53,171 nt of DNA from a virus (lineage: Duplodnaviria > Heunggongvirae > Uroviricota > Caudoviricetes), in IMG/VR virus record IMGVR_UViG_2721755711_000003, positions 1 through 53,171 of that record; one strand, given 5' to 3'. Shown piece by piece: positions 21,091-22,156 of this stretch. Under the pieces are notes generated by a model. It saw only the letters and a program-made list of their open reading frames with translations. It had not been told where the DNA came from and did no database searches. The translations under genes were made by a program, and so were the position numbers. Numbering within the stretch: the first letter of the stretch is position 1; each line of letters begins with the position of its first letter.

Positions 21091-21703
21091 ACGCCCGAAA
21101 AGTGGTGCGGTACGTTAAACGTGCCCGAGGCTGTGAATACGGTTTTTTAGCTCACTGATTTTCTCGACAGGAATTATTGGTATGTCAAAATGCTACTGAC
21201 AGATAAACTGAAAAATGCACAATAAGAGAAGAACGGGAAACTTATTATCAAGCAGAATACGAGACGCGAACTAAGATAGGTGACCGTGCTGGCAGTTTCA
21301 TTGTTCATCTGCCAGCGTTTGACACAGGTTGTGTACTGGCTGCGAAAGCGCGTGGGGTGATGAGTTCTGCGTTCACATACAGGGTGGTGTGAAGCCAGCT
21401 TTTTGTGTATTCAGATGGCATTCTGATTTTGTTTGGAGTTTTTAATATCAAGGGATTACGCATCGGGTCGCCAGCTTAATACAATGTATTTAGTAATGTG
21501 ATGCTTAGTATCACTTATATTATTACGACCCCCTTTTTTAGAGGGGCGATATGGCGTGTTTAGTAATTTTTTATTCAAACAAATTTACAATTACATAGTT
21601 GGTAAATATTGCATCCTGATTATTTATTAGTATTATTTTTGTGGTTCCGAGGGAATGATACATTATGTATCGGGGCATCTCATCTCACTCCCGAGGAACC
21701 AAC

Positions 21704-21779
21704 GCCGACTTAGCTCAGCAGGCAAAGCAACTGACTTGTAATCAGTAGGTCACCAGTTCGATTCCGGTAGTCGGCACCA
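21704..21779 (+). tRNA. tRNA-Thr (anticodon UGU)
   Basis: Hand fold: acceptor GCCGACT / AGTCGGC, anticodon stem ACTGA / TCAGT, loop CTTGTAA, T-loop TTCGATT, 3' ACCA. The D-stem and one T-stem pair are imperfect. Confidence 0.7.
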
Positions 21780-21782
21780 TAT

Positions 21783-21854
21783 GCGGGTATCGTATAATGG
21801 TTATTATCTCAGCCTTCCAAGCTGATGATGCGGGTTCGATTCCCGCTACCCGCT
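21783..21854 (+). tRNA. tRNA-Gly (anticodon UCC)
   Basis: Hand fold: acceptor GCGGGTA / TACCCGC, anticodon stem TCAGC / GCTGA, loop CTTCCAA, T-arm GCGGG TTCGATT CCCGC; no encoded CCA. Confidence 0.75.
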
Positions 21855-22156
21855 CTCTTGTAAAACAAACGAGGCATAGCTTTATCAGCACTGGCGAATT
21901 TTCGCGGAGAACAGCTTTGTAGGTACTATTGTTTTTCTTCATGCTGTAATATCTGAACGGTTACAGTTTCAGTGCTGCTTTTTTTGTATTACATAATGGT
22001 ATGTGATTATTACTTGTAAACGTCGTTAGCAGAATGAGTCGTTACCTGTTCCATGCGCACACGTACAGTAAGCCAGGGTGGCTTTGTAGGTTGACGACTC
22101 ATTCTGGTGGCGACCATATATAAATATAATTCTATTACTACACGATGAATGCTCTG

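Follow-up and report, generated by a model that had tools for sequence, protein, structure and literature searches.

Positions 1 to 53,171 of the virus record IMGVR_UViG_2721755711_000003 make up the window, i.e., the whole stretch of DNA analysed here, 53,171 nucleotides (nt) in length, in which a Rac-like lambdoid prophage of Escherichia coli carries a pair of transfer RNA (tRNA) genes between a probable late antiterminator gene and its lysis genes. Exactly two tRNA genes are called by ARAGORN across the window, namely tRNA-Thr(tgt), hence tRNA-Thr(UGU), at 21704-21779 and tRNA-Gly(tcc), hence tRNA-Gly(UCC), at 21783-21855, both on the + strand and separated by the 3 nt "tat" (21780-21782). 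Against the Rfam family RF00005, for which the gathering score is 29 bits, they reach 65.0 and 65.4 bits, respectively, each at an E-value of about 5e-12, and neither gene is called a pseudogene by these predictors. An initial annotation of this DNA, made from the sequence alone, had therefore recognised correctly two tRNA genes of these specificities 3 nt apart, and the predictor scoring it proposed as a check places both at about 65 bits, far above the gathering score.

For comparison with the host, the K-12 genes thrU and glyT (locus L004) were taken as references. The Thr gene of the window is identical to thrU at 73 of 76 bases and the Gly gene to glyT at 69 of 72 over the tRNA body, which excludes a chance origin of the pair and bears out the likeness to host tRNA genes that had been claimed. 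The window pair is thus confirmed as two real tRNA genes, diverged copies of host thrU and glyT. Three changes, namely T16C, T20C and G22A, set the Thr gene apart from thrU, and the last of them turns the D-stem pair nearest the loop into a C13·A22 mismatch, so that this stem is not fully paired, as the initial annotation had also pointed out. The Rfam score stands at 73.8 bits for host thrU, 69.8 bits for the T16C/T20C allele and 65.0 bits for the window allele, while minimum-free-energy folding of single tRNAs is uninformative on damage by G22A as host thrU gives no cloverleaf either. The Gly gene carries C6T together with G66A, i.e., an acceptor pair turned in a compensated manner from C6-G66 into U-A, as well as C19T and C25T, the latter converting G10-C25 into G·U, and its score of 65.4 bits compares with 64.9 bits for host glyT.

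At the 3' end, the Gly gene reads T-CTC-TTG (U73-CUC) where host glyT has U73-CCA, and the absence of an encoded CCA, another statement of the initial annotation, is thus correct. All known chromosomal tRNA genes of E. coli encode their 3' CCA. The bacterium also possesses a CCA-adding enzyme (cca) and matures the CCA-less tRNAs of phage T4; because of this precedent, the window Gly allele is plausibly still maturable. In E. coli, the identity set of threonyl-tRNA synthetase consists of G1-C72, C2-G71, G35 and U36, and that of glycyl-tRNA synthetase of G1-C72, C2-G71, G3-C70, U73, C35 and C36. All of the former are retained in the window Thr gene along with an encoded CCA (GCCGAC...TTGTAA...GTCGGCACCA), and all of the latter in the Gly gene along with its UCC anticodon (GCGGGTA...CTTCCAA...TACCCGC-T). 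The anticodon arm of the Thr gene (ACTGA-CTTGTAA-TCAGT) is identical to that of host thrU, with five stem pairs, A27-T43 included.

Upstream of the pair, comparative alignment delineates a σ70-type promoter on the + strand, with TTGCAT at 21609-21614, a spacer of 16 nt and TATTAT at 21631-21636. Across 34 distinct leaders from 60 loci, the TTG of the -35 element, the spacing of exactly 16 nt and TAnnAT at the -10 element are invariant while the surrounding sequence diverges, and the segment 21609-21636 is on this basis predicted to be active as a promoter; a consensus promoter scan, which listed only weak sites, missed it, with three of six positions matching in the -35 element. At the expected transcription start, 6 nt past the -10 element in the window and 5-8 nt past it across leaders, begins a 5' leader hairpin (21643-21700, + strand) found by folding, with arms of 12 nt, an internal tandem G·A/A·G and a variable loop; the linker AAC (21701-21703) leaves 3 nt between this hairpin and the 5' end of tRNA-Thr. 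Covariation is seen among the 34 leaders at pair 6 (C-G in 16, T-A in 12 and T·G in 5) and pair 9 (G-C in 12, A-T in 7 and G·T in 13), and the tandem GA/AG is kept in 31-33 of them. Of note, RNase P cleavage would free an RNA of some 60 nt made up of the leader hairpin.

The cassette is definable as a unit, made up of its promoter, the leader hairpin with covarying arms, the copy of thrU, TAT and the copy of glyT. Because the same leader is found beside unrelated antiterminators and downstream of stx2f, it is regarded as the cassette's own promoter and not as a late promoter specific to the antiterminator Q, and a Q-dependent late promoter at this place was rejected on the same grounds. That the leader hairpin acts as a put-like, factor-independent antiterminator is also unlikely, as constitutive expression of the lysis genes from a σ70 promoter would result. 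In about 65 of 131 sampled loci, the leader hairpin is replaced by another tRNA or tRNA-like gene directly before Thr, for which the calls range over Lys, Asn, Ile, Met and an odd "Tyr(ata)"; one such "Tyr(ata)" is placed by ARAGORN further downstream in locus L008 (3785-3866).

The Thr-Gly cassette as such is already known, being annotated in RefSeq and in published phage genomes. A pattern over the Thr-TAT-Gly junction matches at least 119 IMG/VR contigs, and a query of 800 bases finds 6,552 places in 5,420 E. coli genomes, of which roughly 1,100 correspond to extra prophage copies because each E. coli genome has one host locus. The cassette stands beside at least four types of antiterminator, always just upstream of a lysis cassette. 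Alleles were counted among the sampled loci L001-L131, comprising 129 Thr copies, 130 Gly copies and 131 spacers; the survey pattern runs from the 3' part of Thr into the 5' part of Gly, and variation in those fixed segments is under-sampled.

Of 131 copies, 126 have TAT as their spacer. In the host thrU-tyrU-glyT-thrT-tufB operon, thrU is followed by T-CAAGTCC and glyT preceded by ...CCAGG-AT, so that the first T of TAT is the base that follows host thrU and AT the two bases that precede host glyT, and a single, clean deletion of tyrU with its flanks yields exactly CCA-T-AT-GCGGG. From this junction, we infer one event of capture and deletion from an enterobacterial thrU-tyrU-glyT operon, after which the cassette would have spread among lambdoid phages. 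The UGU and UCC anticodons and the anticodon arms are those of the host operon. The window cassette nonetheless departs from it by lacking tyrU, thrT and tufB, by the substitutions in the D arm, by a Gly gene without CCA, and by another promoter, which is followed by a hairpin of about 60 nt instead of the short leader of the host. Sequences unchanged from the host genes account for 75 of the 129 Thr copies and 58 of the 130 Gly copies, which suggests that phage and host copies have recently undergone exchange or gene conversion.

Among the 130 Gly copies, 58 loci have U-A in place of C6-G66 and 4 the U·G intermediate, 3 have A-U in place of G48-C64 and 1 the G·U intermediate, and only 3 broken pairs occur. 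With two independently compensated pairs and so few broken ones, the cassette family is under structural selection. Changes in the Thr copies lie mostly in the D loop, i.e., T16C in 40 loci and T20C in 37, while a smaller number of alleles break stem pairs (15 such counts among 129 copies). U16 and U20, lost by these recurrent changes, are usual sites of dihydrouridine. Among the sampled copies, G22A is restricted to the window and a 100%-identical IMG/VR fragment of 1,181 nt, the near-identical locus L001 having G22, and the CCA-less Gly allele to 4 of 130 loci (the window, L001, L016 and L119). Copies of thrU with a switched anticodon are also encountered, namely tRNA-Arg(UCU) in the phage SerU-LTIIb (L002, 1122-1197) by G35C, G24A and A31G, and tRNA-Lys(UUU) in the IMG/VR loci L081 and L125 by G35T and A26G, and these derivatives still occupy the Thr position beside the Gly gene.

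The same Thr-TAT-Gly cassette, on the late strand and just upstream of lysis genes, is present in the Shiga toxin (Stx) 2f phage phi467 (LN997803) and in SerU-LTIIb, JLK-2012, PhiR47_1 and vB_EcoS-683R6; for phi467, 683R6 and the second pair of SerU-LTIIb, promoter and leader are homologous as well. In phi467, the tRNAs differ from those of the window in being identical to the host genes and lying downstream of stx2f, whereas in SerU-LTIIb, JLK-2012, PhiR47_1 and 683R6 the pair is accompanied by extra tRNAs (Asn, Ile, Met-Lys or Arg) or by cargo (TerB/DUF3927 or tciAB), of which the window has none; in some relatives, the TerB/DUF3927 or tciAB genes are inserted between the tRNAs and the holin gene. 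The initial annotation had assigned the pair to the slot where Shiga-toxin phages carry tRNAs followed by toxin genes. This holds for the general location but not for a fixed order, as tRNAs and cargo are variously arranged: the cassette lies downstream of stx2f in Stx2f phages, and the toxin genes come after the lysis genes (endolysin) in the LT-IIb phage. In Stx phages of the 933W type, the interval from Q to the lysis genes holds the ileZ-argN-argO tRNAs for rare codons, upstream of stx. Those are different tRNA species directly followed by toxin genes, whereas the window has no gene between tRNAs and holin. PMC5189129 refers to the Thr and Gly loci of the Stx2f phage, and PMC3636060 cites a report related to the 933W case, on ileX.

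That lambdoid phages carry tRNA genes in the interval from Q to lysis has been described since phage 21. In the phage SfI, tRNA-Asn(GUU) and tRNA-Thr(UGU) lie downstream of Q, and the authors note tRNAs there in Sf6, ST64T, PS3 and phage 21 (PMC3636060). With this group (Asn-GUU and/or Thr-UGU), the window cassette shares the position, the Thr(UGU) specificity and the rationale of codon compensation; it differs by its partner tRNA, Gly in place of Asn. The Thr tRNA of phage 21 further has an altered and shortened anticodon stem (PMC12445682), neither of which is found in the window copy. As such, the present finding correctly describes a known and widespread feature and matters little as a discovery.

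Codon usage was compared between 34 late open reading frames (ORFs; 9,170 codons) and 40 annotated K-12 genes (14,638 codons). Per 1000 codons, ACA amounts to 12.3 in the late genes against 5.2 in the host (odds ratio 2.4, p = 2e-8), GGA to 14.0 against 7.2 (odds ratio 2.2, p = 5e-8), ACG to 21.4 against 12.6 (odds ratio 1.8, p = 1e-6) and GGG to 18.1 against 9.6 (odds ratio 2.2, p = 8e-10); by absolute excess, they rank 5th, 8th, 2nd and 4th of 61 codons, respectively. The other top-ranked codons in excess, TCA excepted, are read by tRNAs with multi-copy genes. Enrichment of the late genes for the cognate codons ACA and GGA, the other check proposed by the initial annotation, is thus about 2-fold over the host, though the bias is not specific to these codons. 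Pseudogene calls combined with no such enrichment, which the initial annotation had named as its refutation, are therefore not what is observed.

On balance, the cassette most likely serves to boost the supply of two tRNAs for which the host has a single gene each and whose codons the phage uses about twice as often, a reading held with modest confidence. Both genes are high-scoring tRNAs with their identity elements kept, and promoter and hairpin are conserved, the latter with covarying arms. In MG1655, tRNA-ThrU is the sole UGU tRNA (PMC12445682), and in SfI, where tRNA-Thr(UGU) is found downstream of Q, ACA reaches 17.3% against 7.1% in the host (PMC3636060). The cassette would be self-contained, running from promoter and leader hairpin through tRNA-Thr(UGU) and the 3-nt spacer to tRNA-Gly(UCC), between the late antiterminator and the lysis genes. 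Basal transcription would start at its own σ70-type promoter and stop at terminators before the holin gene. On induction, RNA polymerase modified by Q and coming from a late promoter by the Q-like gene would also read the cassette and proceed into the lysis genes. RNase P and 3' processing would then free the tRNAs, the Gly copy needing in addition the host CCA-adding enzyme, and these would add to the supply reading ACA/ACG and GGA/GGG. The tRNA genes, their kinship to thrU and glyT, their placement, the conservation of promoter, hairpin and, across the family, tRNA structure, and the codon bias are direct observations, whereas the transcription pattern, processing, aminoacylation and any benefit to the phage are inferred from sequence.

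Several observations weigh against such supplementation. G22A cuts the Rfam score of the Thr gene from 69.8 to 65.0 bits and, like the loss of the encoded CCA in the Gly gene (4 of 130 loci), could lower function. By ratio, enrichment is greater for AGG (8.8x), AGA (5.3x) and ATA (2.9x), the early genes of the prophage show the same codon bias as the late ones, and the late genes of lambda, a phage without tRNAs of its own, also exceed the host (ACA 10.1 and GGA 10.1 per 1000); relative to lambda, the odds ratio of the window prophage is only 1.7 for ACA (p = 0.001) and 1.4 for GGA (p = 0.03). Because AGG, AGA and ATA are more enriched, early genes behave alike and lambda shares part of the bias, the codon test is a weak one. 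The prophage may also be defective, given an insertion comprising insertion sequence (IS) elements of the IS3 and IS21 families.

Some of the same facts would fit a decaying or neutral passenger without measurable contribution, i.e., a cassette that worked in ancestors and is now being eroded in a domesticated prophage disrupted by IS elements. G22A is confined to the window and its identical 1,181-nt fragment while L001 has G22, the CCA-less Gly allele is rare, the 3.9-kb IS3 and IS21 insertion is absent from relatives, and stem-breaking alleles are scattered through the family (the 15 broken-pair counts given above). Yet both genes lie far above the Rfam threshold, the Gly score equalling that of host glyT, and position 13-22 tolerates a mismatch, host glyT itself having U·U there. 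E. coli is moreover known to add CCA to CCA-less precursors such as the T4 tRNAs; promoter, hairpin, anticodon arms and identity elements are intact, and so are the long ORFs of the late region, from holin through tail genes. Decay of the cassette is accordingly considered rather unlikely, and the narrower proposition that the window allele is mildly impaired or decaying is viewed with the same reserve. Nor does the cassette look as if it acted mainly as punctuation for RNA processing, or as a block of homology for recombination at a module junction, and not in decoding. It does sit exactly at the mosaic boundary between the Q and lysis modules, within the untranslated 5' portion of the late operon, with flanking sequences that differ between phages; compensation preserving the cloverleaf and the retention of anticodon and identity elements would nevertheless be needless in a mere homology block, and the switched anticodons Arg(UCU) and Lys(UUU) imply selection on decoding, which makes this explanation highly improbable.

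A different function, counter-defence, would consist in replacing host tRNAs cut by defence nucleases, notably P2-OLD. P2-OLD is the effector of P2-lambda interference. According to a 2025 study, it preferentially cuts host tRNA-ThrU, a tRNA-Thr(UGU), at paired CNG motifs in the anticodon stem and in this way kills P2 lysogens infected with lambda, and phage tRNA-Thr(UGU), that of the lambdoid phage 21 included, rescues viability (PMC12445682). On our reading of the sequences, glyT and the phage Gly copy both have C28-A-G30/C40-T-G42 and A37, which fits the published motif, although tRNA-Gly is not mentioned as a substrate of P2-OLD in the main text of PMC12445682. In the Thr copies of L019, L024, L039 and L128, G42C/T with T43C alters the CNG motif of the 3' strand and removes two stem pairs, a resistance-like configuration. 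Resistance, however, is determined by the anticodon arm and requires both a change in CNG and a shortening of the stem, and over-expressed host tRNA-ThrU gives little or no protection (PMC12445682). The window Thr differences are confined to the D arm, and its anticodon arm is that of thrU, as in 122 of 129 phage copies. Compared with the P2-OLD-resistant tRNA-Thr6 and tRNA-Thr21 (PMC12445682), the window tRNA has in common the UGU anticodon, its being phage-borne and its counterpart in a single-gene host tRNA, but it keeps both CNG motifs (CUG and CAG intact) and all five stem pairs, so that the two published resistance features are absent. Because its anticodon arm is identical to that of the host, the window Thr allele is predicted to be OLD-sensitive, and counter-defence is not supported for it. 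Replacement of cleaved tRNAs is thus doubtful as an account of the cassette, and a counter-defence role, conceivable for the family with similarly little confidence, is not indicated for the window allele. As most lambdoid tRNA-Thr(UGU) copies keep the OLD-sensitive arm, as does that of the window, an anti-OLD explanation is of limited generality; the few alleles with resistance-type changes or switched anticodons are amenable to experimental testing. A further variant, a stand-alone counter-defence unit in which T16C, T20C and G22A would alter recognition by some undescribed nuclease or modification enzyme dependent on the D arm and the leader hairpin would be a functional small RNA (sRNA), is improbable. 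Bearing on this variant is the observation that both cassette tRNAs carry the paired CNG motif and A37 recognised by P2-OLD.

The late promoter that supplementation would draw upon is better sought next to the Q-like gene. This gene (20442-20984, + strand) encodes a DUF1133 protein of 180 amino acids (Pfam DUF1133, 4e-105). The protein is similar to PHROG 753, "anti-termination protein Q-like" (4e-77); with Pfam PF06530 Phage_antitermQ it stays just below the cut-off of 26 at 25.1 bits, and its matches to the structure of phage 21 Q (6p18; E 0.2) are weak but co-linear. It occupies the Q position in several prophages, with the same synteny in L001, L005 and L011. It is thus probably the late antiterminator, and the location downstream of an antiterminator given by the initial annotation is retained with that qualification. 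Directly after this gene, alignment of three diverged prophages with a DUF1133-type Q delineates a conserved block of about 50 nt (20995-21047, + strand) that is nearly invariant among them, followed by an intrinsic terminator on the + strand (stem 21069-21083, T-run 21084-21090) which differs in sequence while its stem and T-run are kept. Block and terminator (20995-21090) travel with the Q type, unlike the tRNA leader, and are the better candidate for the late promoter, Q-utilisation site and tR'. This candidate would serve an uncharacterised Q family distantly similar to Q21.

On the other side of the pair, a non-coding structured spacer of 495 nt (21856-22350, + strand) extends from tRNA-Gly to the ribosome-binding site of the holin gene, with a fold z-score of -7.6 and none of 100 shuffles folding as well. 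By terminator scan and folding, it holds serial intrinsic terminators on the + strand at 22157-22184, 22263-22308 and 22311-22336. The spacer is a mosaic, in which 21862-21911 corresponds to a shared tRNA trailer and 22251-22350 to the conserved upstream region of this type of holin gene. Its middle (21912-22250) is lineage-specific, with a long near-perfect hairpin at about 22020-22110 and the strong terminator at 22157-22184, and relatives hold the TerB/DUF3927 or tciAB cargo genes at that position. At least 80% of the whole spacer is present in only 13 of 5,426 E. coli genomes. No credible ORF was found in 21856-22350, and PGAP annotates none in the 99%-identical L001 (NZ_CP074756), in agreement with the initial annotation that no toxin gene follows the tRNAs; no toxin or cargo gene adjoins the tRNAs in the window in the manner of the Stx or LT type. 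A permissive Rfam search of 20900-22400 returned sub-threshold matches only, mostly driven by terminators (AgvB at 22.4 of 56 bits, Trp_leader and STnc100).

As a whole, the window is a Rac-like lambdoid prophage, and the tRNAs are phage-borne, as the initial annotation had put it. The left part comprises intR at the left end of the window, the RalA antitoxin RNA and recE/recT, and the nin region is represented by DUF1367 (19544-20155, + strand), upstream of YbcO (20155-20445, + strand), itself directly before the DUF1133 gene. The tRNAs (21704-21855) are flanked by the Q-like gene, with its end at 20984, and by the holin gene, with its start at 22351, all on the + strand. The lysis cassette, on the + strand and identified by Pfam and by PGAP in L001, consists of Phage_holin_8 (22351-22740), Phage_holin_3_7 (22718-23005) and an M15 endolysin (23002-23385); these two holins and the endolysin are followed by terminase, head and tail genes, all on the + strand, and long, intact ORFs are present in this late region, from holin through tail genes.

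The 3.9-kb insertion, absent from close relatives, lies at about 13074-16963 and comprises an IS3-family element, with an ALIL frameshift pseudoknot at 13966-14082 on the - strand, and an IS21-family element, with IS21-like ORFs at 14579-16120 and 16132-16881. Just upstream of the small terminase gene, a gene for a protein with a ParB_N domain (25035-25823) overlaps that of a TET-associated glycosyltransferase (25798-26748; PF20691, 6e-35; PHROG 842, "beta-glucosyl-HMC-alpha-glucosyltransferase"). The two look like a DNA-modification gene pair; by Pfam and PHROG annotation, no TET/JBP gene is seen between them. As for RNA genes other than the tRNAs, the RalA antitoxin sRNA is present at full length near the integrase end (1557-1735, 225 bits), and a match to the sRNA-Xcc1 family (72 bits, gathering score 53) lies on the - strand of the tail-fibre region, at 45147-45231.

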